Under the pieces are notes generated by a model. That model was not told where the DNA came from and did no database searches. It was given only the letters and a program-made list of their open reading frames with translations. Positions 4,445-57,264 of a stretch of 64,000 nucleotides of DNA are shown one piece after another. Positions within the stretch are counted from its first letter, which is position 1. Every line of letters begins with the position of its first letter. A program made the translations under genes and the position numbers. The stretch is from contig OZ076409.1 in assembly GCA_964187785.1 (NCBI GenBank), forward strand, positions 59,646,001 to 59,710,000. Direction: 5' to 3'. The DNA is from Amphiscolops sp. MND2022 (lineage: Eukaryota).

Positions 4445-4608
4445 ATGTACATTGTTGTACATTCTGTTATTAGGTTGTGAATCTGTATACTGCTTTTGTT
4501 TTGTTTGTCATGTATTTATTCTGTCATTATAGTGGTCAGAGTAGTCCCATCAAGATACATACCGTTTCCTGTTACTTAAGAAAGAGTGACTGTAGTTTAC
4601 ATTTCTGA

Positions 4609-28453: not shown

Positions 28454-30803
28454 TGTTACGACTATTGTTCGGTGTTGTTTTAGAGATAGTCGCAGTGTAT
28501 GTTTTCACGGGTGTGGACGTTCTCGCTACGGAGATGTTTCTGGATCAGAGTCAGAATCTTGGACATTCAAACAAACAGGCTGTTTTTTATTCAAAGGGGC
28601 TATTAATTTTATCATTTCCTTTTGGTTCTCAGCGAGTATTCTTGTCAAATCTGACATGATTTCTTTTCTCAGAGACGCTTTCATTTCTTCTAGATTCTCA
28701 GGTTCTACCCTAGGGACTTTACTAGGCCCAGCTATAAGATTCTCAGACGGAGTGTTTTTGGCTATAGAAGCTTCAAAGTCTCCAGAAACTAGCTCAGCTA
28801 CAGCTCTCCTTTTTCAATTAGAATAGTAGGGTCTTCGGCAAGAGGTGAATTCTTTGAAGAAGTTTTTTGTTTAACGTTGAAACAACGGAACAGTTTAAGT
28901 TTATTACAACTCGCAAAGTTAACTCACTGAATTTACATGTTTTGTCTAAATATATATACATTCCTAGCATCATTTGTTCCTCACCTAAAAATTTCTAGGT
29001 ATCCTAAAAATCAAGTTTGTTCATTAAAAAGTGCTTATGATTCAAATCCTGTTTGCTCTTCAGAATTGCGGCAAAATAAGAGTCTAGTTAACATTTTCAT
29101 CAGCGTAGGCACGCCGGCGTGATCAATTAGTCAATTTCCAACATAGGAAGTTGAGTTTCGAGGCAAAACAACGACTAGCAAAAATTGTGATGGAGTTGAA
29201 ACAGAGTAAAGAAAACCCGAGAAAATGAATATTTAGATGATGACGAGGATCAAACGATGCTAGAAGAATAATGATGGTTGGCTAATAATTACACAGATTC
29301 AATAGATACATTCACATCAAACTAAAATTTGGCCTACATGTGGCTTCATCAGAAAAGAGGATGAAAATACAAAACTCGAGGTCCAAATGAGTAAAACAAA
29401 CTGTAGTAGGCAAATAATTCAACACAACAAAAATTATTGTCAACGGAAAGTATCCGTAGTCCCAGCACACTTCCAGATGAACAGAACATTGGTATTATTG
29501 CATAATTGGAATTGACTGCATAACAAAATTAGGATTTCAAATGCACACTTTCCATTACTAAGATGCTTGTTTGAGCAATGATTTAGCGGCAATGGAAGGA
29601 TAGCAACGTGAGACTTCGATAACCTTACTTTGCAACTTCGATGTCAATTCTAAATCATAGTTCATGTGTGTGAAGTAATGTTCGATTGTAGCCATTCTGA
29701 AGAAGGTTGTTCGCAACGTAAGGTGGACGTAACTTCAATACCTTTTACCGAAGATACGCTTTAAGGTAGCACTTTATCATAAAAGACATTTTCATGTTCT
29801 TCCTTACAGTACAGCGCTTTCCTATAAAGAAATTATCTCTTAATCTCTTAAATGCGTCAATTCAAAAGGAACTTCGTTTGGAATTCGTTTGCACCGATAC
29901 TTCATAATTGCGGTTTTACATTCCCTCCGTAGATTCTCCGTACGTATTAAGATTAGTTACAGCTGAGCGGCGGAATACAATTTTACTATCCGCTCCGTAG
30001 ATGCTCCGTACGTACTAAGATTGGTTATAGCTGAGCGGCGGAATACAATTTTACAATCCGCTCCGTAGATGCTCCGTACGTAATAAGATTAGTTATAGCT
30101 GAGCGGCAGTAGCTGGCGGGGAGAAAGTGGAGAGCGCAGGCGAATTCATTCTCTTTCTCTCAGCTAATTGGCCTTGCTGGCAACCGAGTTTAATTCTATC
30201 AGCTTGAGCTCAGATAATTCAGTTAAGAAGCGACGCTATTGGTCCGTAAAAATAGAAACACCCATTACTAGCTGAACTAAGTGACGCTGTCATAACGTTG
30301 TAAACACTTGCTTAAGATCACTTGATTGAGGTTTTAAGTGGATATTGAAAACCACTTTTGATACTGGAAAAACAATTCCACTGTATTTTGTATGTTCTTT
30401 CAGTTTAGATCTTATGAACTCCGTTGGGATCTCGGAGTTGAATATTATCTTTGATGTTTTAGTTTTACTGTGGAGCAAAGAAGAAAATGATCCCATTTAG
30501 AAAACGTTTCTGTTTTAATATTTAGATTAGCATGGAAAAATCAGAAGATGTAACAGGAAATAAGAAAAAGTGTTGCGCTCGAAAAAATTTGACCGGAAGT
30601 TTTAGTTAGTACAAAATCATTTCTGAAATTATTCCGTGACACTTACGTCGTATTTTGCAACTGGAAAATTATCTACGATTAACCTAGCTGTACTGTAAGT
30701 AGAAACAAGTTGAAGTTCTAATGACACTTGCAGTATCCTCGGCCGCGTCCTCTTCCCATTGCGAAACACCAGTCGCAACCACGACCGGGGGCGTGTCGTG
30801 ACA
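28454..30803 (-). repeat. 3' LTR of Gypsy B (2350 bp)
   Basis: Direct repeat of 50753-53226 with two deletions (near 28814 and 29048). Confidence 0.97.
29925..30108. repeat. 68-bp tandem repeat (~2.7 copies) inside the LTR; also at 52352-52535
   Basis: CTCCGTAGAT.CTCCGTACG at 29925, 29993 and 30061. Confidence 0.9.
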
Positions 30804-32127
30804 GGGCCCTCTCGTCGCTAGGAACGCAGGCAGCCCATGGCAATGAGGGAGCTCTTTTTTAATTTGTACTGGGGGTGCAGCTGGAGTAGTTTCTGATTTG
30901 GTGAGGGCCACCTCCACGGCCAACGGACTTGTAAATGTCCTTCTCTTCTTTCTTTAGCTCTAGTGTTAGCCTTGCGAAATACTCGTCCGCGTCCGGTGTG
31001 CACAAATCGTTCATGTAGTCCTTTGCTGACTTTTTCCTTTCTTGTGCTGCAGGGGGTTCATTTAGATCATTGAGACGTTCACCCACGTTTTTCCTTTCTG
31101 GTTCAGCCAGGGGAGCGTTTGCTTCTCGCGATGACTTTAGGGGGGACACTTTCGGGGGAGAGTCCGTTTCTTCGTAATATTCATCCGAGTCAGAGTCAAG
31201 ATTAACTCTCTGACTTTTGTTAGCAAGAGGCAGCTTAAACGTTACCCTTCTGGATTTCTTTTGCTGGGGGGTTAATTTGGCAATTTTTGGAGAGCATTCC
31301 GGCTCAAAGGAGGAGTTTAATTGTGCCTCACTGTCGCGGTATACTTCTATTGATGAATCGCTGATATTTATCGTTCCGACCACGTTTAACGGCAGTGTTT
31401 TTATGGGAGTGCTATGACGTTGGTTCTCTTCATCCGAGGAGATGTCAATGACGAGTGAGTATCCGATCTTTTTATCAAGTTGGCGAGGATTTTGAAGAAG
31501 TTTATTTGTAGATATAATTTTCAAACTTTGTCAATATAGACTGTTTTCTACAAAATTGGACGGCAAGTGAGCGTTTCAGTTTCTTTTCCTTCGTAATTTT
31601 CATCGAAATCTCATTGTGCCATTTTTCCGCTTTCGTTTCGGTCCGTCCTGGACTTTTAAGGTGACGAACTTCTATTTTCGCTATGATTGATCAACAAATT
31701 ATTATAAAATAGGAAAGTTTCGTCTTAATTCCGTTTCTCAGTGTCGTTGTGACATCATCAATTTCTTACGGAACGTAATTTCTAAAATGGCTTTTAAAGA
31801 GGCTTTCTTCAGAGCTTCTTGATGAATTTCTATTCACCAGTAGGGTTTTTGGAAACGTTTTGTTTCCGTCAACGCCGTAATAGGCTTTCCAGTGAAGTTG
31901 TAGATTATGTATCTTTTCTGATTACGTAGGGGTGACTTCAATGTAATATTATGTGACCCCGGATTCCGGTACAGCGACTGCGGAATCCACTGCTGTCTAA
32001 TATTATAATATATGCCTCTGAATTCCACCAAAAATTCAAGGTGAAGAGATTTGTCCCCGGAATCCAGAAAAAATTGCAAGCGGAATCCGCTGCACATGTT
32101 ATAAAGTGTGTCTTTGAAATCCGTCAT
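30684..32127 (-). pseudogene. Accessory sense ORF ('ORF3') of Gypsy B, running into the 3' LTR
   Basis: Pieces 31834-32127, 30859-31524 (221 aa, S/P/acidic, KKSRRVTFK) and 30684-30923, which crosses the LTR edge at 30803; no TM or signal peptide visible. Confidence 0.6.
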
Positions 32128-32287: not shown

Positions 32288-35200
32288 ATTGTCTTGACGA
32301 ATTCTGCTGTAACTCTCCCTGTCATGGAGGAAGATTCTGATCTCCCTCCTCTTACTCCTGCTCCCAAGATTGGGTTCACCAGTGGCAATGAGACAAACTA
32401 TTGCTATACTGACGTTTTCCATTCGGAGGTGGAGGTCACAGTTACTTCCTCAGGTTGGTAAAATCTTTCTGACTTTCATGGGCAGTTGGAATATTGTTTT
32501 GGTGATCAGCCCATTTAGTCTCACCGGATTATCTGACTCCTCTGAAAGACAGATCTTGATTTTCAGTAACTCAACCTGGCACTTTTTTGACTATTGTTCC
32601 CGTTACTTTGGCGGATGAGACTTTTGTCGTCAACACGGGATTGTCGCCATTGGAATCTTCTACAGTTACTCTTTCTTGTGCCTCTAACCCTGTGGTTTCA
32701 CCTGTTTGCACTGTTACTTGTGCGCAATCGACTTTGGTTCCCGTGAGTTCTGTGGTTGGGTCCACTGTTTCCCCTGACATTGGAGCCTCATGTCCTGTTC
32801 TCCCTGAGCGGTCCGGGATGCCTTCGTCTGGTTTTACGTTGGATTTGGAGCCTCATGTAGGTGAGGCTGATCCCCCTCGAGTGATGCTGAAGGAGGTGAC
32901 GAGGACGAAAGTCGGCCGCGAGGTAAGGGTATTACCGTTTTGTGGTGAACAGGGTTTGCATTGCATTATGTTGTCCGCTCCTTTAGTAGTGTTCTTTGTA
33001 GGTTCAACTATGTTTCCATTCCGGAAGGAGGGTTTACCTTGGACCGCGTGTTATCGGTTTCAACGAGCTTGCGGATAAAGTGGAGAGTCGGTTGGAACGT
33101 CCGAAAAAGAAGTATAGCAGTCGTAATCTGTTTCATCGTCGGATGATATCTCTAAATCCGGTCTTTGGAGATTTTGTGACGGGCTCACAGCGTTTTTCTT
33201 CTATCGAGTTTGCAAGCGTGATGTAAAGATGGGCTCTCATGGTTCATCGGAATTTGTCCGTCATTTCGAGTCCAAGAAGCATTGGGAACAGGATGTGGTA
33301 TATCGTTTACAAATGGGGTTGCCGATATACAACAAATTAATGGAGCCAATGACCCTGTCTAGCCGTCAAGAGGACGAGTTTCGTTCCCGACCTTTCCTTG
33401 ATTTGGGCCCAGAGTTCCCTTTTCCCGAAGATTTGTTGCCAAAACATTCAAGGGTTGATTCGAAAGTGTCTTTCATGACACTTGTTCCCTGCTTCTGTGA
33501 CTGGCTGCGTAGTGGCGGCGATTTCTCTTTTGTGAAGCGACTGTGGGGGCTTTTCTTGGCTACGTTGGGCGAACGTGAGCCCGAGTTTACTCTAAAGTGG
33601 AGCCGCTCCGAAACTGCAGTGAGTATGATGTTTCCGAATTGTATTTGCTGGGGTTATTGTGTTGCCGCTACTGATTTCGAAAAACTCCAGGTAGTGGGTT
33701 TTGGATGTATTCAATATTATATCTTGTTTGGATCTGTGTTTTTCATAGTCGTTCCTGTGTCAAGGCGTTGCTCCGCGAGTGTTGCGTGCCGTTCTGAATG
33801 GGGCATCTGCTTTTGGCGATTATTCTGTGCAGTATAGAGTGTCTCGTTGGTGGCCGAGAGAGACACGGAGGAGGAACGTTGCTTCATTGTCTTTTGGGAA
33901 GAAGAACAACTCAAGAAGATTTGCATTGGTAGCGAGCCGTTGGAGCAACCTAGGCCCTGTGCCGAAATCACTCCCTTGTCCCGTTCCGTGTGTTGTTTCG
34001 ACAGTGAGAAACTTCCTGTGTTGATAGTTCGGGTCAGACCGTCCTTGCTGCGCGTGTTGAGTGTTAGTCGTGTTGACGGGAAGCGATTTGTGGTTTGTCA
34101 ATCATTCACAAGCAAAATCCTGCTTCAGTGTGTACGTCAATCATATCAGGACGTTTTTGGGATGGTCGAAATAACAACTATTGTAGAATATACGTTGCAT
34201 CGTTTAAAGAGTGCTCTCTACGAAGAATGGACGGAAGGGAAAGTGGCGCTCCGCAAATGTGTCCGGCAAGGTTTCGTTAACTTCTGTGATCTGCGCGCAG
34301 TTCTGACAGACTTGAAAGATCTTTGGCCTTCTATTCGACCCTACCTTCGCTGTACTGGGAAGCCCGAAGCGAAGGAATCTTCTGACAGAGTTAGTTATTG
34401 TGTTTCCAGAGTGTTGTTTTCTTAGGAATTCCGATGCTAGTATCGCGTGAGGTTGTCGTCCTGTTCATTTTGTAGTCATTATTTTTGCTGTTTTTCTAGA
34501 TGCAAGGTACAGATTGGTTGCTGGTGGCCGACAAGCTGATAGTCTATCGATTCAGACTATTTCGTTTCGTTCTCAATACATGTGAGTTTGTTTTTGGTTC
34601 CTTGTTTTCTCTTCATTGTATCTGACAGGCTGTGTTTTGTAATTTGACTGTGTTGACTCTGATTGTTTGTCGCCATTAGGAATCAACTATATTAGTATCT
34701 GTAATTATTCCGTCTTGTTTTAGACAATATCAACTTTGAGAAACTGGAGCAAGGACGAAGTGACTACGCGTTCCATGCGTACGGCGAGGTTTGCAACTTC
34801 ATTTACTGCCTGCTGTTGAAGACGCATGTGTCGAAACATCTTCCTGGCATAGTCGAATGGGAAGAGTATATGGATGCTTCTGTAGTCAGTATTTTCTCCA
34901 GTGTCCCCAATAACGAGTTTCTTATGAATTATGATTTCGGGAAGTTGTCAGAAGGGAAGACAAGTGATTTTGTGACGTTTCGTCTTCGGTGTCGCGAGTT
35001 TATTGACCGCCTGATTGTGATGTTGTTGAAAACTACCAGTGCGACGTCGGCTATTAGTAAAGGCTTGTACAGCTTTTTTCCAGAAATGATGCTGGAGGGT
35101 GACGACACTACCGCCTTTGCGTTATTTGCTGGTTTGTGTAAAGAGCTGGTCACTTGTGGTGTTATTGCCTCTGATGTATCCAGGGCTGCTGTGAAAGAGT

Positions 35201-36046
35201 ATACCAGCTATATAGTGGAAAGGCGGAAGAATCATTCGAGTTCTGGGCAATCTGCGAGTGGCATTATGGATGTGCTGCAGCATCTGTTGTTGGATTTTGG
35301 CTTTCAAGCTCGGCATCGTGTTCTCCGTGTATTTAAGCTTCGAGGTTTATTTGTGGGGATGCCTGCTGTCAAATATCCTGTTGTTACTTTTGACCTTAGT
35401 GGTAGTGCATTGGAGTCTCGTTCTTTCCAGGACTGTTTACATCTTGTTCAATCGTACGTTATGTGTGCGGGGTATTAGCCTCAGGGTCTTTTCAGTGATC
35501 AGACTGTGAGTGCTGTTCGACGAGCAGTATCTGATTCTGGTGTCTTCTTCGTGACTGCTGGGTTTAATTTGTGGACTAATTTCTAATTTTTGCCGTACTG
35601 ATTGTGATGCTTTCATTACACGGTATGTGACCCTGTACGACACGTTTTTGGATGAACGCCGCAAGGCTTTTGATGCTGAATATAGTTCTTGCAATTTTGT
35701 CAATCGTTTGCCTCGCGTTTATACTGAAAGCAGAGTCTCCAGTCACCCGTCACGTTCTGAATGTGGTAGTGATGTTGGAAGTTCGACGAGTTCAGTGGGT
35801 ACAGTGTTCCAAAAAAAGAGTGTGAGTGGATTGGGTTCCTCCGCAGTAACCGCGGTCAAGTCAAGTAGTGGCAGTGTCAAGTCGCCTGTTAAGAGTGCGT
35901 GCTGTTCTTCTAAAAGTGGTTCGGAAAAACCCGTTTCCGGCAGCAAATTGAATGCCCCTGTTTTGCCAAAGAAGAGTCAAGGCCGTCAAAAAAAGGTGGT
36001 TGATCCTCCTGTTGTCCATAAGTTGAAAAAACCATCCAACATTTGA
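32288..36046 (+). pseudogene. Antisense multi-exon accessory gene of Gypsy B (BED-like Zn finger plus degenerate hAT-transposase-like body)
   Basis: Exons ~32288-33618, 33749-34389, 34500-34581 and 34724-36046 with phase-compatible GT-AG introns; finger (Y/C)RVCKRDVKMGSHGSSEFVRHFESKKH; S/K-rich tail. Confidence 0.85.
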
Positions 36047-36236: not shown

Positions 36237-37736
36237 CTAGGCCTGATTTGGACGCGAGTCTTCCGTAGTAACTGAGTCGAGCATTCTAAAGTCAGAATTC
36301 ACATTAGGTCTCGGATTAGGTCGCAAGTTTTCTTCCCACTTTTCAATGATTGTATCCAACAACTATACGAGGTAATTCTGGAGTTTTTCTTTGGGGGGGG
36401 GGCTTTGTATAGGCGGTGGAGTTAAGATGTAGGGGTTATCACTGACGTCCAGATTGAATGACGTAACGTTGTCGGAGGATGTTTTATCCCCGTCAGAATT
36501 TTCTACTGTGGCTGTTTTAGCCACTTCATTTTCCGTTGTATTTGCGTCATCTTCTGCTTTGTCTGTGATTTCTGTAACTGAGGCTGTTCTGTTGAATTCT
36601 CTGTAAGCGTTCCGAACAGAACTTCTCCGAATTCGGTTTCCCAAGCTTGCTCGTACCAATCACTGTGGGTTGTTTTAACCTCTGGATCTGGAAAGTAATC
36701 TTCCCTTCTGACTGTTACGTCAGGTACTCGCTGATTGGGCGCATATAGCCTTACGCGAATTTTATGAAGGGTTTGGGTATATCGTGTACCCGTGCGACGT
36801 ACGACGTAATTGTTGTTTGAGAGCACTTTGACGACTACGTAAGGACCAGTACAGATGCAAGCTTTGAAGGCGAATTTCATTGACTGGTTGTCCGCTTTCG
36901 GGTTCAAAACGTAGCAGTAATCGTTGACTTTGAGAGGCGTAGCAGTGGTTTTCTTGTCATAGTATTGTTTGTACTTGAGATATTATTGCATTAGATTCTC
37001 TTTGGCAGCTTGATGTAGTTCAGCTATTTGTTTTTGTAGCTCATCCGTTAGGTCTTCGTTATTGTCTTTCTTCCATTCAGGTTTCAATCCGAGCTTTATA
37101 CCCAGGATGTTGTACGGAATGCGTCCGTGAAACACTGTTGTAGGTTCGCAGCCTAAGCTTTCGTGGTAGCTTGTGTTGTAGTTCATGACTGCTATTTGGA
37201 CGTATTTGTGCCACATTGAGCGTCTTTCTCCCGTTGATATTTTTAAGGAAGACTTCACAGAGGCATGCGTTCTTTCTAGTATGCCTATTGTTTGTGCATG
37301 TTTCGTCGATGCGTGGTCTATCCGTATCCGTATGTCTTGCGTTTGGGCTATCTGATTGACCACTTCTGATCTGAATTGTGATCTTTTGTCTGTTAGTATG
37401 ACGGTCGGTAGATAGCAATGTCGTGTCATTACATCAATTATGCAACGGGCCACTGTTCTTGCTGTCATATCTCGAGTTGGGTACGCAAAAAGGTAGCGTG
37501 AAAAAACATCCATCATCGTGATGATGTGTTGAAATCCATTAGATGGTGATAAAATTGGTAATATGTCGACTTCTAGACAGTCTTCTGATCCCATTGTGAA
37601 TTCAGTGTTGCTCAGCATTTTGGGACGTATTAGTCTCGTGTCGATATTTTTGTTGGCAATGCAATCTGGGCAACTAGTTACCCAGGTTCTGATTTTCCGT
37701 GCCACTTCCGGGAAGTAGTATTTGGCACTACGTTCC
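36237..37736 (-). pseudogene. pol: Integrase core and C-terminus of Gypsy B pol
   Basis: CPDC, LEVDILP, ILTD, LERTH, GPY; ends NLRPNPRPN...QA*. Confidence 0.93.
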
Positions 37737-37741
37737 TGTAT

Positions 37742-38593
37742 TGTAACGGCTGCTTGATCCCTTCACTTGACCAAACTTTACGCCGCCCTGAATTCGGTGC
37801 TCGGCACTGCGGATCCTTATCGAATACTGCTTGCTTCTTAGATTAAAAGGACTGTATCTTGACTTAGTAGGATCCAATGATCCCGAATTGCACTTCTTCC
37901 TTGTCTCTTAACACGTCCAACTCTCCACAAGTTGAGAGTAACTAACTTAGTCGCCCTAAGACTTTGGCGAAAAGTCGAAAAGAGGTGAAGAAATGAATTG
38001 AGAATTGAAATGGTCCTAAGACCCAACTTGAATACAGCTTTCCAATAAAATTGTGCTTATTTAGGTATGGTATACATATCGTTTTCAATTATTCGATAAA
38101 TATGAGTTGAAATATGAAGTATAAAAAAAATGACATTTAGGTGAATTATTAAAGTTATTAGCTATGTAAACAAACCTTAGTGTGGGTATAGCATGTTGGT
38201 TAGGTGGGCTCTAAAGCATGTCTACACAATGTAAATATCATCATTTGCAACAGAGTTACATTCTAATGTGGTCATAATGGTAAATAGCAATGTTTACATT
38301 ATTGGCACCATGACCTTGGATATTACACATATGAGGGGTAACGGGCGTTATAATGGGTGGATGACCTTGAAACTGAGCCGGTGTGTCCGTGTTTGGTACC
38401 TGCATATGTGTGCCAAGTTTCGAGTCGCTATGGTTAATAGTTGTAGAGAAAACCCTGACTGGGGGGGTTTTCGATTTAGCAAAGTGAGGTTTTCGTTCAA
38501 ATTTTCATCTAAGTTTTTAAGAGTTTAAGTCATGTTTCTCAACCACTATGTTCCAAATCGACTTTCTTCGCCTGCTTCTGACTAGCGCCAACA
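37742..38593 (-). repeat. 3' LTR of the BEL element (852 bp)
   Basis: Direct repeat of 45335-46185, ~39 mismatches by manual count; purine tract GGGAGAAAAACAGGG just inside. Confidence 0.97.
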
Positions 38594-41500
38594 TTGCCGG
38601 CCCTGTTTTTCTCCCGAAAAACACTTTCATAGAACAGGGGTGCCAGTTTCACTGGTCTTTTGAACTTGACATCTTTTGTCACAACTGTCGCAGCTCTGAC
38701 TCTGCCATCGCTTCCTTCTTGTACTTCCAGTACTCTCGCCATCTTGTAGTTGGACCGTTTAACATTTTCACCCACGACCCAAACCAAATCATTGACTTTC
38801 AGCTGTCTCACGTAATCTTTGTTCCATTTATTACGCGCATTACTTTCAGGCAGATATTCTTTAGTCCATCTGGTCCAGATCATATCTGAATAAGCTTGCG
38901 ACACTCGAAATACTCGTCTCATATCTGTGTAACGTTGAGCGTCTGGTAGGAATGGTGTGGCTAAATTAGCTCTTCCCATTAAGAAGTGGTTCGGAATCAA
39001 AGCTTCCAGGTTCTTCAGGATCGTCACTAACACTAGTCAGTGGTCTAGCGTTCAACGTCTGTTCTACTAAACCTATAGTTGTTTTAAGGACGTCGTCCGT
39101 CAAGGATCGCCCATCCAATACAGCTATCATTGCTTTATTACAACTTCGGACCAATCGTTTCCAGATTCCTCCAAAATGAGGAGCTCCAGGAGGGTTGAAT
39201 TTCCACTTGATTTCTTTTTGAGCTGAAGAGTTCTCAATATCTGACTGATTCCATGCATTTATAGAATATCTCATTTCTTTAGCTGCACCCACGAAGTTTG
39301 TCCCGTTATCGCTCAAAATTGTAACAGGTTTACCTCTACGAGCAATAAACCGTGTGATAGCAGTTAAGCAGGTCTCTGCTTCCAAAGATGGAACAACTTC
39401 AATGTGTAATGCTCTAGTCGTCAAACATGTGAAGAGACAACACCATCTCTTCATGGTCTTACGCATAAACTTCACTTCAAAGGGACCAAAATAGTCAAGT
39501 CCAGTGTTGGTGAAGGGGAAAACTCGTTCCTGCAATCTCTCTCGTGGTAAATCAGCCATAAATGGTTGAGACACTCCAGATCGTTGCTTTCTACATTTAA
39601 CACATTTCGCTTTGACGTTCCTCAAAGCGTTTCGCAATCCAATAATCCAGTATTCTTGCCTCAAAAGACTTCTGACGTATTCTGTGCCTTCATGAAAATT
39701 CGCTCGATGAGCATCTTCAATCAACTTGATGACTACAAAGTGCTTTGCTGATAACAAGATCGGATGTTTGACGTCGTAACTTGATCTTGAATGCTGCAGT
39801 CGGCCTTGTAGTCGCAGCAATCCATTTTCATCCAGAAACGGAGATAATTTATTCAATTGATCTGACGCCGACAACGGCTGCCCTTTGGAGATGTTCTCGT
39901 GGGCATCATGAAAAATTTCTTTCTGACAACGTTTCAAAATTGCCAGCTTTGCCGCATTGAGTTCTTCAACTGTCAAAATTTCTCCAGAATTCCTGTTCTT
40001 CGATCTTAGGCAGTACGAGAGCACTCGAATCATTTTCTTGAAAGAGCCAAATCTTTCCCATTTGAATGCGGGTTCCATTACAGCAGCTTGCAGGACTGGT
40101 TCTTGCTCTTCTTGAATGCTGAATTGCAACTTTTCAGGCGCCTTAGGCCAGGCGCCCTCTGTCTCGATAAGCCAAACCGGCCCTGTGAGCCACTTACTCT
40201 TTTTCAGGGCTTAAACTGTCATTCGTCGAGTTCCAATGTCGGCAGGGTTCATCTTTCCTTCCACATGTCGCCATTGGACTATAGTTGAATTTTCGAGGAT
40301 CTCTGCGACTCTGTTCGCTACAAAAACCGGTTGCTTTTCGTTGCTTGCGTGAAGCCATTGTAGGACCGTTGTTGAATCTGTCCAGTGTACGATTCGGTCT
40401 ACTTCAATATCATGTTCTTCTAAAATGAGTTCACGCAGTCTTACTCCAAAGATTGCTGCCTGCATCTCCAACTTGGCCACGGTCATGTTCCTAATTGGAG
40501 CTACTCTACATTTTCCTGTGACAAAGGTCACTTCGCCATTGTCTTGTTTTCTCAAATAAGCAACCATACACATTGCTTCCAACGAAGCGTCTGAGAAGAT
40601 ATGTAGATCAACTTTGTTCACTCCAGACACGAATTATGTTCTTTTAAGGACCATTTGATTTACCTGAATCACCTCTGATGCCCATTTCTTGAATGCATGT
40701 CAATTTTTTTCATTCAGTTCTTTATCCCACGACTCTCCGTTCTCCTTCCATATTGATATTAGTAGCAGTCGCGTTCTGATAGTAAAAGGAGACACTATTC
40801 CCAGAGGGTCGAACACTGCTGAAACATGGGATAACACCGCTCTCTGAGTTATGTTCACCGGTGTCTCCTTCTGCATGCCTCTGCAGATTTCCAGATTATC
40901 TGCATCAACGTTCCATTGCAGTCCCAAGATTGATGGAGAAGTCGGCTCAGCTTCGAAGGTTTTACTAGAGGACGGTGACTTGTCTGCTTGGTCGATAGAC
41001 TTCATAGTCTGTTCGCAGTTGCTAATCCACTTTGTTGAGTGAAAGCCTCCCTTTGCTAACATCGCTCTCAACATATTGTAGATTTCAATAGCTTGCTCAG
41101 CGCTGGGAACAGACTTGACAAAGTCATCCATATAGAAGTTTCGCATTATCAGTTTAGTAATCTGTGGGGACTCCTGTGCGTTATCTCTTGCAACTTGTTG
41201 CAGAGCATAATTGGCGCAAGTTGGCGAACTTTTGGCTCCGAAGATATGTCTTCCATACTCATACACCTTAACGGGTTCATTTGGATTGTCTCTCCATAGA
41301 AGTCCCAACACTTTACAATCTTCCGGTGGTACTTCCACCTGGAGGAACATTGCCTCAATGTCGGCGGTGATGGCAACCTTTTGTTCTCTGAACCTGAAGC
41401 TTATTCCAATCAGATTCTGTAGTAGGTCCGGTCCTGTCAAGAGGTTATCGTTCAAGGAAATTCCACGGAATTTGGAGCCTGCGTTGCACACTCGCCTCAC

Positions 41501-44500
41501 TTTTCCTGATTTGTTTGGATTTTCTACTGGGTGATGTGGAACATACCACTGTCTTTCCAGTTTTGTAGCTTCTAATTCTTCCTGCTTTAGGATTCTGACG
41601 AATCCCTTTTCAACATCTACTTTGATAGAGTCTTGATAGAGTTTCTTCAGCTCCGGTTTCTTTTCAAGTCTAAGCTCCAACAATTTCATTTGGCTCAATG
41701 CCGACGAATAATTGTTCTTTTCCAGAGGAGTCCAACTTCGTATCTTTCACCATCAAACTTCGTGGTTTGTTCTAGCACCTGCAACGCTTTCTCGTCGTCC
41801 TTGAACCTTCCAGACACATCACAGCGGGATGCGTAGGATTCAATGTCCCACCAAGTTTTAATCTGTTCTGCCAGCACATCATCTTCGGAAGCTGTTACGC
41901 AAGATGCAGTCATCTGCACAGCCTTTTGTTGTGGAAGTGGTCCACAGAGGGTCCATCCAAGTTTCGTTTTCACTGCCCAAGGCTCACCGTTCGTGCAGCT
42001 TTTATATTCTACAGGTCGATGTATATGGTAGCAGTTTCGTCCCAATATCATTTTTACATCTTTGAGTTTCAATGTTTCTTCGCTTAGAACCGACAAATGG
42101 GGATAGGCAAGTTTGAGCTCCTGATAGTTGTAGATCTTTGTTCCGGCGTCTATGTTTGGATGAGTGTAAATTTTCATGTGGTGTGTGTCGCTCATTGCCT
42201 TGCCACAAATTCCCACAGTGAATCGTTCACATTTCACATCATTTGTCCCATGTATTCCAGCCACACTCAGGTCAATTTCTTCGCCGTGAGCATTTAACTT
42301 GTCAGCCAATTTCTTGTCTATGAACGATAGATTTGCTCCAGAGTCACACAACGCCAAGGTTGATTCTTGCTTTTTCGAATTTGGATGATGACAGGTATAA
42401 CTGGCAGAATCCCACTGCTCTTCAGTGAGAAAAATGCAGAGTTCACCTCCGCCTTATCTTGCCCGTCTTCTACTCCACTATCTTTCGGTCGTCCATTTGT
42501 CTCGCGGTGTAGCAGTCGATGGTGCCGCTTGTTACAACCTTTGACTCCACACGCTTTGTATGTGCAGTCTTTCACTACATGTTTCCCAGCCAAACAACAA
42601 AAACAGAAATTCATCTCTTTGACTTTCTCGTATCGCGCTTGACATGTCATCTTCAAAAACTTCTCGCATTTCCACAAAGGATGTTTACCATCTCTCAAAA
42701 GACAATCTTGACCAGTCTTCTTGTCGAAATTGTCGTCAGCGAAAGTTGAGAAAGTAGAGTTCTTTGGTTTGTCATTACTTGTCCATTTCGATTTGTCGGC
42801 GTTGGGATTGCCTGTCATGAGAACATCTATCTGCACCGCTGCTATCTCTTGCAACCATAAGCTGAACGCTTCCAGCCCTATGTAGTAATAAGCTTTTTGT
42901 CTCGCGTGCGCCAACGGTTGCGTCTTCATGTTCATTGGCAAATTACTGGTCGCACTACTCAGGACGCATTCTGACTGCAAGTCGCCAACATAGTTCATCT
43001 GTGTCAGAACTTGTACACAACTTGAAACTATTCTCGAGTATTTGACCAATGCTACGGAGTCGTACGCTTTCACTGGCGGAAAGGTGTATATTCGTCTCAA
43101 TTGTGCGTTAACTACCACTTATGGTCTTCCAAAGTGCGCGACCAAGGTATTCCAAGCAATATCATACATGTCTCCAGTGTAGCCTAGTCCAGCTATCACT
43201 TCTTTCGCTTTCCCAGTGACCAGCGTTTTGAGATGATTCATCTCCAAGCTGGCGTCGATGTTTGCAGCGTGCACGGTCGAGAGGAACAACCCTGACCACT
43301 CGGGCCATTCTAGTGGGTCACCTGAGAATTCTGCTAACTTCAGTTTCGGCAAACTGGCTGGTATGCTCACTGCTTCATTTCTTATTGCCGCGAACTGACT
43401 CTGTATGGGGGCAGAGTAGTTAGCTGAGGGTCCCACTGGTGGTGGCAATGTGCCACTTCTCGTTTGGTTACTTAACATTGGTTGGTTTGGAGGTTCGAAG
43501 TTCCCAAGCTGCACATGCTGTTGAAATGTCTTGTTCATTTGCATCTTCGCCGATGCAGCGTTCGGCGCGAATTGACTGGCCGACGTGCCATCCTTTACCA
43601 TGGTCGGCTGTGCTGTTTTAGCAGCCAGGTGGGACATTTGCGTTGTGTGTGGCAAAGGGTCAGGTTGTGGTTTGATAGGTTCGTTGGCCAGTGCGGTTCT
43701 GGATACCTCTTCTCCAAACTTCGTTGTTCTTTCGTCTCATCCATTTTCTTCAAGCCAAGAAGGTACCTTTTCGAAAGGATCGCTGTGGATGGGTATTGGC
43801 GAGATGCTTCGCAAACTTGTGCTTGCTCTGCTTCCCTCCGCCCGAGCGATTTCCATTTCCTTCTCTGCGATTCGTTTAGCCCTTGCCTTCTCCTCTTGGA
43901 GTTTAGCAATTTCGAGTTCTTCTGTGAGTTTATCCATTTCCTCGTGTTTCTTCGGCTCTCGGCTTGGCGTTTCTTTGCAGCTAGTTTTTCATCGATTTCT
44001 TCTTGTTTGTTCATTGCTTCCAGTTCTAGGAGCATCACTCGCTTTGTGGTAGTTGACTTTGAACTAACTGATGTTCTGTTGCCATTTGAATGGGCCTTGC
44101 TTGCACACTGATCTCTTTCTTCAGATAGCGAATTCACCTCATTAACACAACCACTCTCAAACGAATAGGGTACCTTTTGCCACTTCTTCATTCGCATTTT
44201 TCTGAGGAGATGTGTCGCGGGACTTTATTTGTTGCTCTTGTCAATTCACCCTGGCACGCGCCATGATTCCCTCCATACGATGCAACTCACTGTAGATTGA
44301 AGTATCTCCACTGTGTTTCAACAACTCATCCATCTCGTCCACAATTTCATCTCTCCTTTTGAGGGTTTCTTCGTTTGTTTCTACCAATGCTTTGTAATCC
44401 TCTGAGTTGCAAAGAGTGTCCCGATTTTTATTGATTTCATCTTCGTTTTTTGAAGCATTTCATCACATTTCTCTTTGGAGTTTTGATGTTGTAGGAACTC

Positions 44501-44893
44501 CTACAACTGTCCTTCATTCTTTAGGCTCCTCAACATTGTGAGCATCTGACTAATGTGTTTATGTCGTGTTTCCAAGGAACCTAATTCATATCGATATCTG
44601 CAGAATCGGTCGCCTTTTTTATCCGCCCATTCTGGCTGATACTTGACTGTCAAGAGTGCTGTGTTCGCCCCGACGAGTCTCTTCCATCTAGGCAGTAGGT
44701 CTTGTCGGTTCGGTAGAAGGTCTGCGAGTTTTTCCTTCGTTACGTCTGCTTTGCGCAGCTCAGCATGTATTTCATCCATTTTTGCCTCAAGGATTTGAAT
44801 TGCTCTCATGTTGCTCTCCCATTGTGGCTTGTCGATAGAACTCTTCAAATAGTTGTCAATTCTTTTGTAATCAATTCTCTTAGTTTCAGCCAT
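38539..44893 (-). pseudogene. BEL/Pao gag-pol polyprotein (fragmented)
   Basis: LPKLKLAEFSGDPLEWPEW gag; three Cys/His knuckles (CFCCLAGKH..C, CGVKGCNKRHHRLLH); CDSGA protease; FYMDD RT; FSDAS RNase H; integrase LDYFGP/SDNGTNF/PHFGG; end overlaps the 3' LTR. Confidence 0.95.
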
Positions 44894-45241
44894 TTTGAAC
44901 TAGCGCAAAACCCCAGAGTACACTAACTAACCATAGGAGTCCAAATTCTGCTCTGAATACAATTCGCAACAAGCCGACGAAGTAGCCCAAAACCCCAGAG
45001 TACACCTTATACCCAAGAGCTCCAGTAATACCACTTCGAATACAATCTCCCAGAGCCTGCAGAAGTAGCCCAAGCCCCAGAGTACACAATACCCAGAAGA
45101 GAGCCCAGATGAGACCACTTTTCAGTGCACACATCTTTGTAGGGTTCAATCACAGTGGTTCAACAGCTGTCGTTCACTGTACACGTTCACTTGTTCGCCC
45201 AGTGCTTCTCTGGCTGTGTAGCAATCAATTGCTCATCCAGT

Positions 45242-45320
45242 TGTCCGCCCAATTGATGATGTCCGCCCAATTGATGATGTCCGCCCAATTGATGATGTCC
45301 GCCCAATCGATGATGTCCGG
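45242..45320. repeat. 18-bp tandem repeat (TGTCCGCCCAATTGATGA x4) abutting the BEL PBS
   Basis: Directly visible. Confidence 0.95.
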
Positions 45321-45332
45321 GTCGGCGGACCA
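45315..45332 (-). promoter_or_regulatory. BEL primer-binding site (TGGTCCGCCGACCCGGAC; tRNA-Tyr-like)
   Basis: 2 nt from the LTR end; 14/17 match to the TGGTCCTTCGAGCCGGA tRNA-Tyr-type PBS common in BEL/Pao. Confidence 0.7.
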
Positions 45333-45334
45333 AA

Positions 45335-46185
45335 TGTAACGGCTGCTTGATCCCTTCACTTGACCAAACTTCACGCCGCCCTGAAGTCGGTGCTCGGCAC
45401 TGCGGATCGTTACCGAACACTGTTTGCTTCTTAGATTGAAAGGACTGTATCTTGACTTAGTAGGGTCCAATGATCCCGAATTGCACTTCTTCCTTGTCTC
45501 TTAACACGTCCAAGTCTCCACAAGTTGAGAGTAACTAACTTAGTCGCCCTAAGGCTTTGGCGGAAAGTCGAAAAGAGGTGAAGAAATGAATTGAGAATTG
45601 AAATGGTCCTAAGACCCAACTTGAATACAGCTTTCCAATAAAATTGTGCCTATCTAGGTATGGTATACATATCGTTTACAATTATTCGATAAATATGAGT
45701 TGAAATATGAAGTATAAATAAATGACCTTTAGGTGAATTATTAAAGTTATTAGCTATGTAAACAAACCTCAGTGTGTGTATAGCATGTTGGTTAGGTGGG
45801 CTCTAAAGCATGTCTACACAATGTAAATATCATCATTTGCAACAGAGTTACATTCTAATGTGGTCATAATGGTAAATAGCAAGGTTTACATTATTGGCAC
45901 CATGACCTTGAATATTACACATATGGTAGGTAAAGGGCGTTATAATGGGGGGATGACCTTGAAACTGAGCCGGTGTGTCCGTGTTTGGTACCTGCATATG
46001 TGTGCCAAGTTTCAAGTCTCTATGGTTAATAGTTGTAGAGAAAACCCTGACTGGGGCGGGTTTCGATTTAGCAAGGTGAGGTTTTCGTTCAAATGTTCAT
46101 CTAAGTTTTTAAGAGTTGAAGTCTTGTTTCTCAACCACTATGTTCCAAACTGACTTTCTTCGTCTGCTGATGACTGGCGCCAACA
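45335..46185 (-). repeat. 5' LTR of the BEL element (851 bp)
   Basis: Direct repeat of 37742-38593. Confidence 0.97.
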
Positions 46186-46190
46186 TGTAT

Positions 46191-49100
46191 CATCTTCGTT
46201 ATTCCTGGATGTTTGTTTGTTCTTCCATGTAGTGTGGACAAGGGTTCTAGGACTAGATGTTTCGGGGTTATGACTTGGTTATGCGTGACTGATCCGTCTT
46301 CTCCGTAGTACTTTCGCATTAGGACTCCATCTTTCATTATGATTCTTTTTTCATGTCGTAATAGATTTCGTCCTCTCGGTTCAGTTTTAAGGAGGTGCTT
46401 GTCGTATTCTTCGTGTGATATCCGTAGTTTCAACGCTTTAAGGAGGGGATCCGCATCTTGCTCGTTTCTGATCCGTGCATATTCCTTGATTGCGCCGAAC
46501 GAGTAGACTGCGGAGTTGAGGGGTATCTTGATGACTTCAGTTACCTTAGTTGATAAGTCTTTTTCGTGTTCTTCCTGGGCGCGTTGTTTGCTTTGTGCTT
46601 TCCTGGCGAAAATTTTTTGTTCGGATTCTTCTTCTTCATCTGGCAGGAAGAAAAGTTGTTCTTCGTCTGCGACGTCTGATGGTTGTAAGTTGACTTCTAT
46701 TGGTGACGTTAAGATATCGTCCCTTAGCTTTAGTTGTACTTTTTTTTGGAGTAAGTTCGAGTTTCGAGAGGAAATTTGCTGCCGTGTTCTGGGAGCCTGC
46801 TACGTGCATGATTCGGAATTTAAATTGAAGGACGTAATCGCAGCATTCCAAAGTGCGGGTGGTGTTGTTTTTGTCTGGAAGAATCTTGTTACTGAACTGT
46901 TGTCTGACGAAACCCATCGTCGGTATCGTTGTTTCCCATAGGATGTGACTATATTCAAGGATTGCATGGTATATAGCCAAAAACTCTTTACAGTAGATTG
47001 ACATCTTTAGTTGTGCTGGTGAGAAAACACGTGATCCGAACGCTACAGGCGCGAAGGTTTTCTTTTTCGAGAGGAGTTTTCTTTCGTCATTTTCTTCTAT
47101 CATCGGGCGTAGCCTGATGCTCGGAAACTTGCGTCCGTCATTAGCACGTATTGTTTTCCTACTATGGGTTGTCTGAGTGCAAGTCCGCAGGCTTCCGCTT
47201 GGATGGCGTTGATTTCTTTAAAATTGTCGACAAGTTCTTCCGAGGTTCTAATTTTGGAGTCAGCTTTTATCAGTTCGTACATACCAATGAGTTTTTCAGA
47301 TAGTCGTGGTATGTAGTTTCGGTAGTAATTGACAAAACCGATGTACTTTTGGACCTGTTTTTGGATTTCGGGAATCGAACTTTCGAAAGAAAATTTTTAA
47401 CTTTTTGATCCTGCAGGGCTACTCCGTCTGAGGTGATGGTTTCTCCGAGGAATTCGACTTGTTTTTACACCAAAATAGCATTTTAGTCCCGCTTTCCGTA
47501 TACACTTGAAGACTGCTCTGATGTCTTTGATGAGTTGTTCCGTTGTATTTGCGGCTATGCCAAAATCGTCAACATTTTGTGCGCACTGATCTGCTTTGAT
47601 GACTGAGTCGAGGTATTCCCGCATGAAGTTCGAGAAGGCTGACAGCGCTCTACTTAGTCCTTGGGCTAGACGACAGTAGGCAAACGTTCTACTAGCAAAG
47701 TTAAAAGCAAGTAATTCTACTGACCTTTGATCTGCCATTTGGAGGCAGTGGTACGCCTGGGAGCAGTCGAGTTTGCAGAACAGTTTATTCCCTGCTAGGT
47801 GTTGTGCCGCGTCTGAGAGGGTGCTGATTGGGTGGTTGCTGTTGATGTAGTCATCTGCGATGAGGGCGTTGATTTTCCGCAGATCCACCAAAAGTCTCGG
47901 CTTGCCGTATCTATGCATGAGGGCTAGTTCTACCGTTAGGTCTTCTTTGAGATTGATTGGGACTAGTAGGCTCTGTGTGTATACCAGTTTGTCATCTTGT
48001 GAAGTTAGACTGACTTTAAATTGCGTGTTCGTTCCGATATCGAGTCTGTGGCGGGCGAAGATGTCATGGAATTCGACAATGGTGTTTTATAGACTATCAC
48101 GATTCTTTCCCGTAATTAGTGAGGCTGTCCGTTTGAACATTGCAAGGAACTTGTTTCGGGATTCTTCGTTTCCGGTTGGATCGAGTTTTTCTAGTTCTAG
48201 TTCGACAGGTTCCCGTAGCTCTTTCAAAATTCGCTTTTGTATGGGCGAATGTTCTTGTTCATTGCCAGGGTTTCCTGAGGTTGGGAACCAGAATTTTTCT
48301 TCATTATCATCTTGTCGTTCTACTTGCATTGGTGCGTTGATGTACGTCACGACGTCGTCATTTTCTGTGAGGAGCATGAGGGCGGCGATGTACCGACTGG
48401 GCGGATCATATTCGTTTCTTCTGGTTTTAGAACTTGTAATTCAGCTATTTTGGTGATTGTAGCTGATGTATACGGAAAATCCGTTGTATTGGCGACCTTT
48501 ATTGCCACTTTTTTGTCTCTGGCTGTTGTTATTCATTCATCAAATTGTGGTAGCGTCTGCAGGTATCTTGTGCTTGAATTCTGTTTTGATCATGATGGGC
48601 TTGGGGTTGCATTTTTGCATTTCGTCGGTGAGCGCCATCGTGATTTGGATCTTTGGGAAGTCAATTGTTCCTTGTGCAGTGTCTAGGATTGCGGCATGTT
48701 TTCGGAGGAACGCTAGTCCTATTATGGGAATGATGTCTGGTTCATGACAATGAACGTTTCCTCAAAGTTGTAGTCCCGAATTTTGAAATGTGGGGTGTAC
48801 GTGGCAAGTGGTTGTTCAAGTTCAGCATTAGCGTATTGTACCTGGAAAGGGGGTGGGGGTGATTTGTTGACGATGCATTGACTAGCATTCTGTTGAAGTT
48901 TTCCTACGTCCCTTTCACTAATAGCGTTAATGTACGCAGCTGAGTTGACTAAGGCGTCAATTTTGACAGTGTGTTGAAGTCGAATGGTAGGAAGAGCATT
49001 CCCTTATTCTTCTTTTGGGCGATTGCAGACATTAACGGAATGTAGTCGTGGTCTTTGTTGTGTTGGATGAATTCTTTGATTTCATCTAGATCTTCGGGTA

Positions 49101-49745
49101 GTGCTGAAGGGCATTCCGTTATTTCTTCCTCCTCAATTGTCATTGCTGTGGCTGGCGCTGTTTTTAGTGGTGGTGAAGGAGAGTTGTTTTTTTTCGCTGG
49201 TCTCTTTCTTGTTGCGCCCATTTTGTTTTGTCTTCGATGCAGATATTGTTTTCTGCGTCTATCGGTGTGGACGTAATGGTGACGGGACCTGTCGGAGACG
49301 GTGTTGTTCTTTTCAGGATAGGTGACAGTGGCAATAGGAAGTTTGTTGTTTCTTTGGGTTGAGCTTGGAGGTTTGGGACTTGGATTTTGAAGGAAAGTTT
49401 CTTTGTGTCGTATATAGTTGGTTCGTCCCAATGTACGCATCTATAGTCCATGTCATATATATAAACACGTTCAGTTTTAGATTCTGGCAGAGGTCTTCTG
49501 AGTGTCGCATTATTGTCGGGCGACTCCGTTATCCATTGGTGTAGCGACGTTGGATCTTCTGGATGTCTGGCATTATGTCTGAGGATCCTGCCTACGTTCC
49601 AGCGACGTTGCCAGTCTTGGGTTGGTTCTTCTTTGCATTCGTGAGAAAAACCCTCTTCGTACCTGTTTGGGGGGTCTTCGTTGGTGTACGCCCTCGCGTT
49701 TACTTTTTCCCAAAAGCGTAGGCGCGGCGATTTTATTTTTTTGCT
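46191..49745 (-). pseudogene. pol: pol of Gypsy B, 5' part (PR, RT, RNase H, start of IN)
   Basis: ALVNSAAY protease, KLDCSQAYH, AQNVDDF, MTDASF, HGRTNKHPGI; clearly homologous to element A pol. Confidence 0.93.
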
Positions 49746-51130
49746 TGGGACGACGTGGTAGGTACGGGTTGCTCGCTAATCTTATCTGTTGGGATGGTGA
49801 ATTTTCGTTTTCTTTTCCTGGGGTGCTTTGCCGCATTGGCTCTGTCCCAGCAGTTCTCGGTTTTGTGCATTTTACCACACGTATTTGTGTTTTGGTGCGT
49901 CGATTTGGTTTGAACCTTTTGTGTTCGTTTTTGTGATGGCATAGTATCACTCTTTCCGAAGTCGGCGACACTGTTCTTTGTTGTGGCCATATTTGCCACA
50001 GTGGAAACAATAACCCCTTTGCTGTTGTCCTTTTTTGTCGTCCGTCACTACCACGTCCACTGTGTTAAGTGGGACTAGGGTCGTTTCATTAGGCGCACCT
50101 AGTCCGTTTAGTCGCATCAAGATGCAGAACGATGTCATTGTAGGGCTTGTCTTCTAAGTATGCCCTGTTGAGGATCTTTTTGACGTGGTCCGGTATTTTG
50201 GCGTATAGTGCTTTATCAATGAATTTTTGTGCCTCAGATCCAAACGCTTCTTTTGCAGTCTTTTGCAATATTTTCTGGAATTCATGAAGTTTTTGCTTGG
50301 TGGGGTCGAAATGCAGCGCATCCCACTCGCATCTTGCTTTAGCAGAGGACTGAAAATCGCCAAAGCGACGCGTGAAAGCTGTTATGACTTTTTCCAGATG
50401 ATATTTTTTAGTGTCGTCGAGGTTACAGTACGCTTGCAGTGCGTATTCTCGTAACAATGAGTGGAAGTAGTTTAATTTCCGAATCTTTGTGAGATGAGGG
50501 TACATCTTGATGTTATTTCGAAATAGGTCTTCAAAAAGTTCAAAATTTTCGGACTTACCATCGAAAACTGGAAGCGAAGCAGTGAGTGCTTTCGGCATTG
50601 GAAGTAGGTTGGCAGATGGGAATGTCTGCAGTTGGGGCGCGAACAGATTTTTGATGTAGAGGGTTGGTCTTTTTGTTGTTCGCTATGTATACGTTGTTGT
50701 TCCGGTCTTTTTGTGGGTTGATTTGTGGAGTCATTGAGGACTCCTGTCACCATGTTACGACTATTGTTCGGTCTTGTTTTAGAGCTAGTCGCAGTGTATG
50801 ATTTCACGGGTGTGGACGTTCTCGCTACGGAGATGTTTTCTGGATCAGAGTCAGAATCTTGGACATTCAAACAAACAGGCTGTTTTTTATTCAAAGGTGC
50901 TATTAATTTTAGCATTTCCTCTTGGTTCTCAGCGAGTATGTTTGTCAAATCTGACATGATTTCTTTTCTCAGAGACGCTTTTATTTCTTCTAGATTCTCA
51001 GGTTCTACCCTAGGGACGTTACTAGGCCCAGCTATAAGATTCTCAGACGGAGTGTTTTTGGCTATAGAAGCTTCAAAGTCTCCAGAAACTAGCTCAGCTA
51101 CAGCTCTCCTTTTTGACGTCTAGTTGTCAA
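49733..51130 (-). pseudogene. gag: gag of Gypsy B, starting inside the 5' LTR
   Basis: ORF 50472-50957 crosses the LTR edge at 50753; FDGKSENFELFEDLF; CFHCGKYGHNKEQC and CGKMHKTENCW knuckles. Confidence 0.88.
50738..50752 (-). promoter_or_regulatory. Primer-binding site of Gypsy B (TGGTGACAGGAGT)
   Basis: Immediately follows the LTR ...TAACA; same core as in element A. Confidence 0.75.
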
Positions 51131-53226
51131 TTCGTTTTTCAATTAGAAAAGTAAGGTCTTCGGCAAGAGGTGAATTCTTCGAAGAAGTTTTTTGTTTAAC
51201 GTTGAAACAACGGAACAGTTTAAGTTTATTACAACTCGCAAAGTTAACTCATTGAATTTACATGTTTTGTCTAAATATATATACATTCCTAGCAACATTT
51301 GTTCCTCACCTAAAACTTCCTAGGTATCTTAAAAATCAAGTTTGTTCATTACAAAGTGCTTATGAATCAAATCATTTCAGTCCAGCGTCATGAAATCACG
51401 TGTCGAATTTCCTAGTTGCGTTGTTATTCCGTAAACTTTGTTGAAATCATTTTTGTTCAAGCAATTCCATTTCCTGTTTGCTCTTCAGAATTGCGGCAAA
51501 ATAAGAATCTAGTTTACATTTTCATCAGCGTAGGCACGCCGCGGTGATCAATTAGTCAATTTCCAACTTAGGAAGTTGAGATTCGAAGCAAAAGAATGAC
51601 TCTCAAAAATTGTGACGGAGTTGAAACGGAGCAAAGGAAATCAGAGAATATGATTATTTTGATATTAACGAGGATCAAACGATGGTAGAAGGATAATGAT
51701 GGATAGGTAATAATTACACAGATTAAGTAGATACATTTACATCAAACTCAAATTTAGCCTATATGTGGCTTCATCAGAAAAGAGTATGAAAAATACAAAA
51801 CTCGAGGTCCAAATGAGTAGTACAAACTGTAGTAGGCAACTAATTCAACACAACAAAATTTTTTGTCAACGGAAAGTATCCTTAGTCCCAGCACAATTCC
51901 AGATGAACAGAACATTGGTATTATTGCATGATTGAAATTGACTGCATAACAAAATTAAGATATCAAATGCACACTTTCCATTACTAAGATGCTTGTTTGA
52001 GCAATGTTTTAGAGGCAATGGAAGGATAGCAGCTTGGGACTTTGATAACCTTACGTTGCAACTTCGATGTCAATTCTAAAACACTGTTCATGTGTGTGAT
52101 GTAATGTTTGATTGTAGCCATTCTAAAGAAGGTTGTTCGCAATGTAAGGTGGACGTAACTTCAATACCTTTTACCGAAGATACGCTTTAAGGTAGCACTT
52201 TATCAGAAAAGACAATTTCATGTTCTTCTTTACAGTACAGCGCTTTCCTATAAAGAAGTTATCTCTAAAATATCTTAAAAACGTCAATTCAAAAAGAACT
52301 TGTTTTGAAATTCGTTTGCACCGATACCTCATAATTGCGGTTTCACATTCGCTCCGTAGATGCTCCGTACGTATTAAGATTAGTTACAGCTGAGCGGCGG
52401 AATACAATTTTACAGTCCGCTCCGTAGATGCTCCGTACGTACTAAGATTAGTTATAGCTGAGCGGCAGAATACAATTTTACAATCCGCTCCGTAGATGCT
52501 CCGTACGTATTAAGATTAGTTATAGCTGAGTGGCAGTAGCTGGCGGGGAGAAAGCGGAGAGCGTAGGCGAATTCATTCTCTTTCTCTCAGCTAATTGGCG
52601 TTGCTAGGGGCAACCGAGTTTAATTCTATCAGCTTGAGCTCAAATAATTCAGTTAAGAAGCGACGCTATTGGTCCGTAAAAATAGAAACACCCATTACTA
52701 GCTTAGTTGAGTGACGCTGTCATAACGTTGTAAACATTTGCTTAAAATCACTTGATTGAGGTTTTAAGTGGATATTGACAACCACTTTTAATACTGGAAA
52801 AACAATTCCACTGTATTTTGTATGTTCTTTCATTTTAGATCTTATGAACTCCGTTGGGATCTCGGGGTTGAATATTATCTTTGAAGTTTTCATTTTCGTG
52901 TGGAGCAAAGAAGAAAAGGATCCCATTTAGAAAATGTTTCTGTTTTTAGATTGACATCGAAAAATCAGAAGATGAACCGGAAATAAGAAATAGCGTTGCG
53001 CGTGAAAATATTTGACCGGAAGTTTTAGTTAGTCCAAAATCATTTCTGAAAATATTCCGTGACACTTACGTCGCATTTTGCAACTGGAAAATTATCTACG
53101 ATTAACCTAGCTGTACTGTAAGTAGAAACAAGTTGAAGTTTCAATGATACTTGCAGTATCCTCGGCCGCGTCCTCTTCCCATTGCGAAACACCAGTCGCA
53201 ACCACGACCTGGAGCGGGTCGTGACA
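50753..53226 (-). repeat. 5' LTR of Gypsy B (2474 bp)
   Basis: Direct repeat of 28454-30803. Confidence 0.97.
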
Positions 53227-53231
53227 GAAAT

Positions 53232-57262: not shown

Positions 57263-57264
57263 AC

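Follow-up and report, generated by a model that had tools for sequence, protein, structure and literature searches.

What kind of gene does a Ty3/Gypsy retrotransposon keep on its opposite strand, between pol and its 3' long terminal repeat (LTR), and where might such a gene have come from? The question is raised by a 64,000-nucleotide stretch of the genome of Amphiscolops sp. MND2022 (contig OZ076409.1, positions 59,646,001 to 59,710,000; referred to here as the window). A Ty3/Gypsy element on the minus strand of the window carries two extra genes in its pol-3' LTR interval, open reading frame 3 (ORF3) in the sense orientation and, divergent from it, an antisense gene. The original prediction, made from the sequence letters, read the antisense product as a catalytically dead hAT transposase adopted by a retrotransposon; introns, ORF3, and the exchange of the cassette among elements were not part of it. 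We conclude that the antisense gene is a real, widespread and selected accessory gene and that it is probably a dead hAT transposase domesticated by the retrotransposon; what it does we infer from how it is conserved and exchanged.

Matches to the last exon (exon F) throughout the genome indicate that the antisense gene is not a chance reading frame. There are at least 149 of them in the 1.07-Gb assembly (6,690 candidates, 148 scored), and another search of the same genome gave at least 150 from 3,480 candidates, both totals being lower bounds rather than copy numbers. An integrase on the opposite strand lies downstream of the antisense gene in 53 of 54 fetched loci, all taken from the top matches, which bears out the predicted location within a class I element. 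LTRs are paired in all 26 two-stretch elements, and most pairs are 97 to 100% identical. In the window, Pfam recognizes the reverse transcriptase (RT) and integrase of the carrier, its LTRs are about 92.5% identical (self-BLAST), and the target duplication is GAAAT (5 bp). The Ty3/Gypsy features confirmed are the LTRs, the target site duplication (TSD), and the order protease, RT, RNase H, integrase (PR-RT-RH-IN), with the protease identified by eye in the pol of L037 and L038. A profile of exon F collects 1,157 cluster representatives (50% identity clusters, E ≤ 0.001), and the 10 that were checked are all unnamed ENA gene calls. One relative, P0094, has no match above 30% in the Amphiscolops sp. 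MND2022 genome, and the family therefore likely extends to other hosts.

The open-frame copy L037 has six predicted exons (A to F, of approximately 45, 113, 193, 207, 27, and 428 codons), for a protein of about 1,020 amino acids. Splicing is predicted from the conservation of the splice sites: in 30 loci of one clade (clade 1), AG or GT is preserved at 190 of the 195 corresponding positions, against backgrounds of 6% for AG and 9% for GT. Several of the five misses look like off-by-one extensions. In a second clade (clade 2), 20 to 25% identical to the first, the C/D, D/E, and E/F introns lie at matching positions, and there is one extra. Where dS could be measured, in 22 of 40 exon pairs, ratios of nonsynonymous to synonymous divergence (dN/dS) are 0.01 to 0.11, which marks purifying selection; the other 18 pairs are saturated. 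It is virtually certain, in our view, that the antisense gene is coding and under selection. No intron-less retrocopy occurs among the 150 exon E matches listed, the longest open frame being 356 amino acids. Deep-branching relatives (P0086, P0094, and P0139) appear to be without the E/F intron and to lack close counterparts in this genome (P0094 checked). Because it is antisense and, as predicted, spliced, the gene would be missed by standard repeat annotation.

The copy in the window is broken, and it spans 32324-36046 rather than the 33180-35480 first proposed. The exon C acceptor reads CG, 13 nucleotides are deleted after 33192, 20 are inserted after 33834, and exon F contains an in-frame TAG (35476-35478) and a 7-nucleotide insertion after 35575. 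The peptides quoted in the original prediction are present in the order given, but they are spread over four predicted exons and cross frameshifts. Both members of the strand pair YSVQY...CFIVFW are in the window, but in different frames on either side of the 20-nucleotide insertion, and DKLIV...NTY/NINFEKLEQ is continuous only with the predicted E-F splice. The CxxC..H..H finger reads YxxC..H..H here, the first cysteine being tyrosine, whereas 129 of 137 aligned relatives keep the full CCHH set.

The likeness to hAT transposases is one of predicted structure. AF2 models were made of exons D and F, and that of exon D from the L037 copy (predicted local distance difference test [pLDDT] score of 57) has an RNase H-like core. 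Searched with Foldseek against 350,542 chains, this model finds Hermes, a hAT transposase of the Ac group (PDB 4D1Q, 8EDG), at ranks 1 to 4, 6, and 9, with E values of 2.1e-3 to 1.6e-2 for ranks 1 to 4. From the helix before b1 onward the alignment has almost no gaps, and it continues into the insertion helices; the helices past the exon D core align to Hermes up to residue 347 (root mean square deviation, 10.2), and the helix after RW is in register. The checks set beforehand did not overturn the original prediction as far as exon D is concerned: its model is RNase H-like, and neither an intact triad nor ends resembling terminal inverted repeats (TIRs) were seen. The antisense protein also appears to follow Hermes in the order of its parts, with a finger, then the RNase H-like core, then a putative helical insertion, and differs from it by an additional low-complexity N terminus of about 200 amino acids, by about 180 additional residues at the C terminus, and by its location inside an LTR element.

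The residues that an active hAT transposase would need are not recognizable, as had been predicted. CxxH, a motif with a role in hATs, is found in 1 of 84 sequences, and ERxFS in 0 of 115. Five hAT residues are listed as essential, D180, D248, E572, R318, and W319 (PMC6027215). The D180 site has E in 40 of 76 sequences (the deepest-branching rows included), T in 34, and D in 1; the D248 site is acidic in 0 of 85; and the W319 site has F in 31 of 36 and W in 1. RW is lost. The most Glu-rich column near the E572 region (F213) has E in 35 of 117, the register of this third site being uncertain. In the deep-branching relative P0278, the first catalytic position is occupied by Asp. No inverted repeat longer than 12 bp was found across the cassette in any of four copies (E ≥ 1.4), an 8-bp TSD not having been searched for separately. 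If the protein is a hAT derivative, the modeled site equivalences make it very probably catalytically dead.

Trees of RT, integrase, and exon F (25 elements) agree on the deepest split, and this shared split is consistent with a single old capture of the gene by the Gypsy lineage. Within clades, the cassette does not follow the LTR and is reshuffled among near-identical pol backbones: L037 and L041 are 98 to 100% identical in RT/RH/IN DNA, and their exon F proteins are only 53% identical. Cassette swapping without LTR tracking suggests a host-facing role. We also note that the elements are mosaic (L037/L038 versus L041/L042, L043/L044, and L035/L036), with LTR plus ORF3, antisense cassette, and pol exchanged as separate modules.

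Several results weigh against a hAT origin. VIA places Hermes level with unrelated RNase H/actin-like folds for exon D, and the confident exon F model (pLDDT 90) has no match in PDB, VIA-wide, or BFVD, Hermes included. Pfam gives no match above cutoff for the exons, PDB sequence profiles provide no link to hATs or to any other known family, and exon hidden Markov models (HMMs) have no meaningful match to the ORFs of 50 host hAT loci (hhalign <1%). The description of a hAT-type protein is supported by the exon D core, with no Hermes match for the C-terminal half and no link at the level of sequence. Pfam also finds no hATC (PF05699) in 126 members, the last-helix register of the hATC comparison ranking 6 of 618, and no zf-BED, the finger giving only subthreshold C2H2 and zf-C2H2_ZN292 matches. 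The unmatched exon F, the missing sequence-level link, and the VIA tie would suit a different descent, in which the protein, with its C2H2 finger and its RNase H-like fold, came from a host gene or from some other DDE family and the hAT likeness is of fold class only. We consider such a descent unlikely in view of the Hermes ranks, which were predicted beforehand, the near-gapless alignment into the insertion helices, and the succession of finger, linker helices, core, helical insertion, and final helices, which is the hAT order (PMC6027215); the exon F nonmatch is weak evidence, because only the Ac-type Hermes structure has been solved. A hAT origin is, on this balance, likely. Nesting is common in this genome (a BEL element in pol; a hAT derivative in L129), and the gene could on that account be a nested hAT insertion, either a passive passenger or an active transposase. 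We reject this reading and give it a negligible probability, as it is refuted by the same position being held in 53 of the 54 loci, whose pol lineages range from 54 to 100% in integrase identity, by strong purifying selection, by the lost catalytic sites, and by the lack of spanning inverted repeats in the four copies examined. It is also very improbable that an altered nuclease or metal site, with Glu at the first catalytic position, still nicks or processes nucleic acid: the glutamates at the D180 and F213 sites and the single Asp would fit, but the D248 site is never acidic, Thr occupies the D180 position in 34 of 76 sequences, and both CxxH and RW have been lost.

As to function, retention of the finger, the basic patches, and the scaffold points to a nuclear DNA- or chromatin-binding protein, which we regard as likely. 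Purifying selection combined with fast divergence, and with swapping independent of LTR and integrase, is easier to reconcile with a trans-acting, host-facing factor than with an LTR activator of the lock-and-key type or a partner of integrase; integrases 99 to 100% identical where cassettes are about 53% identical speak against a tight partnership of the latter kind. The dead hAT-derived protein might instead tether the preintegration complex to chosen chromatin, or poison multimers of host hAT/ZBED-type proteins as a dominant negative. Conservation throughout exons C to F (dN/dS ≤ 0.11) fits a multimerizing scaffold, the fast divergence and the swapping between pol backbones fit a host-facing module, and the genome contains many hATs; the integrase comparison counts against this alternative, which we judge improbable. 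A pro-element, antisilencing role is favored because of the host-facing pattern together with a constrained ORF3 that has a SIM-like motif, and by analogy we would place a pro-element chromatin regulator ahead of tethering or dominant-negative action and of other roles, with a confidence just short of even. The absence of protein-LTR cosegregation counts against this regulator as far as strict cognate specificity is concerned.

ORF3, the second accessory gene, has an acidic, low-complexity product that is present in both clades. It is constrained, with pN below pS in all 10 pairs, and Pfam scans assign it to no family. An acidic motif that we take to be a SUMO-interacting motif (SIM) is present in both clades (five copies inspected).

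The explanation that we propose begins with a hAT transposase that would have inserted antisense into the stretch between pol and the 3' LTR and been captured whole, once, and that would then have lost its ends and its DDE catalysis. Introns in antisense orientation are retained through reverse transcription of sense RNA, and this accounts for an intron-bearing passenger. The gene would be driven by an internal promoter that also serves ORF3 in the opposite direction, and its protein would act in trans, binding either the chromatin of the element or a silencing factor of the host and relieving repression in the manner of TnpA/VANC-type regulators. Taken as a whole, a captured dead hAT transposase reused by Ty3/Gypsy as a nuclear, chromatin-binding, pro-element accessory is the reading toward which we lean, by a little. 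A bolder version is possible but doubtful, namely, that a whole hAT captured once with its introns by an animal Gypsy lineage became, after losing its catalytic site, an obligatory, swappable antisilencing module and, with a divergently transcribed, SUMO-decoy-like ORF3, forms a two-gene counterdefense cassette that is locked in an arms race with the host and is diversifying across >1,000 protein clusters. The natural allele swaps on near-identical pol backbones would allow the function to be tested with nothing more than genome and RNA data.

Hosts are known to domesticate transposases, and DNA transposons to encode accessory regulators of their own. In the host-domesticated hATs ZBED1/DREF, ZBED6, DAYSLEEPER, and ZNF862, a transposase scaffold is reused as a regulator; those are host genes at fixed loci, whereas the antisense gene is multicopy, retrotransposon borne, and reshuffled. 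The Gypsy integrase gave rise to Ginger; a class II enzyme taken up by a class I element and maintained there by selection would be the reverse of that route, a DNA transposon domesticated by a retrotransposon and not by the host. Among regulators encoded by elements themselves, passages on TnpA (Spm) and VANC (VANDAL) present both as accessory, TnpA being transposase derived, and state that transposases can switch on the elements that encode them and that DDE can be lost on co-option (10.64898/2026.08.24.746577). As described there, neither protein leaves the DNA transposon that encodes it, and each binds its cognate ends, whereas here the classes of donor and carrier differ and the protein does not follow the LTR. 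The closest counterparts in position are the plant Gypsy elements Retand, Grande, and RIRE2, which carry a conserved, accessory antisense ORF between pol and the 3' LTR; the passages concerned report a promoter of its own for that of Grande, a probably nuclear product of unknown function, one domain labeled Transposase_28 (TRP28; PF04195, reported as specific to flowering plants), and an unknown origin for most such ORFs (PMC11963269, PMC7264820). They describe no introns and no whole RNase H/DDE-derived transposase, and no Pfam scan of our family matched PF04195. In its proposed mode of action the antisense protein resembles these plant ORFs and TnpA/VANC; it falls outside both the active hAT transposases and the TRP28 proteins. 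Capture of a hAT would give a concrete origin to one kind of antisense accessory ORF; the origin and function of the plant counterparts are stated to be unknown (PMC7264820). Bdelloid LTR elements likewise show capture of enzyme genes by animal LTR elements, their extra ORF3 genes (env, GDSL esterase, DEDDy exonuclease) being shared as modules, but none of these is a DDE transposase (PMC5408684). In the full-text literature that was searched, we came across no LTR retrotransposon described as carrying a hAT-derived gene; subscription journals, Repbase reports, and supplements may hold one.

No progenitor was found, and searches for longer relatives returned little. No longer homologue of exon F was found among 3,601 candidates, exon C led only to family members among the best 120 of 124, and metagenome scans gave nothing beyond one 15-amino-acid match (L144). 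A PF14291 progenitor search found nothing, its absence being unproven because the same search missed a domain that hmmscan scored above cutoff in L125. A degenerate motif pattern picked out three loci, degraded or unrelated, and a DHC_N1 lead from ESM Atlas (low recognition) was dropped as unsupported. Multicopy PF05699 matches near a Gypsy integrase tail (L129, L131) proved to be short hAT deletion derivatives, distinct from the antisense gene. This derivative adjoins the integrase tail (L129:3600-4400; L131), with eight matches of identical PF05699 score, and may be carried by its neighboring retroelement. Near a hAT fragment (L137:3-1694) lie family B DNA polymerase-like ORFs, presumably Polinton-like.

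Table 1. Features of the window, with strand and basis of assignment
Feature	Position	Strand	Basis
Predicted exon A: ATG, 5' coding	32324..32453	+	62% amino acid identity to L037 exon A; GT donor
Predicted exon B: Ser/Pro/Val-rich low-complexity linker, poorly conserved	32567..32922	+	Comparison with L037
Predicted exon C: basic patch, CCHH finger (33202-33282), then helices	33057..33618	+	Alignments
Predicted exon D: RNase H-like core, then the first part of a helical insertion; D180/D248/CxxH/RW-equivalent sites	33749..34389	+	AF2 model of L037 copy, Foldseek, VIA, site counts
Predicted exon E: 27 codons	34500..34581	+	Conserved AG/GT; at least 150 genomic matches
Predicted exon F: all-helical domain (~315 amino acids) and low-complexity basic tail	34724..36046	+	AF2 pLDDT 90; cluster matches
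ORF3: divergent from antisense gene, extends into 3' LTR	30862..31530	- (gag-pol strand)	
3' LTR, Ty3/Gypsy	28454..30804	-	TG...CA ends; self-BLAST to 50753-53227; flanks
pol 3' end: integrase core and tail	36503..37762	-	Pfam rve (E 3.5e-11), Integrase_p58_C
BEL/Pao-type LTR element nested in pol, outside the finding	37742..46186	-	853-bp direct repeats, 95% identical; ORFs
Degraded gag and 5' pol part (RT)	46187..50752	-	Pfam RVT_1, DUF1759
5' LTR, Ty3/Gypsy	50753..53227	-	Self-BLAST; flanks
Degraded clade-2 homologue of antisense gene	1956..4441	+	Exon C and F profile HMM matches; tblastn

The window also holds a degraded clade-2 copy of the antisense gene, within a second, degraded Gypsy element (~1200-11100); it is found by tblastn with clade-1 exon F (E = 0.004) and by HMM profiles that included clade-2 rows. 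The LTRs of the Gypsy elements are unusually long (2.0 to 2.4 kb), and a gag frame (50472-51119 in the window; also L038) begins within the 5' LTR and runs through the primer-binding-site region. The element nested in pol, which we take to be BEL/Pao from its features, has an 18-bp tandem repeat (45242-45331) adjoining one of its LTRs. Elsewhere in the window (62798-62919, 22179-23513, and 56371-57269) are a perfect inverted repeat of 52 bp as well as two tandem duplications (~666 and ~448 bp).
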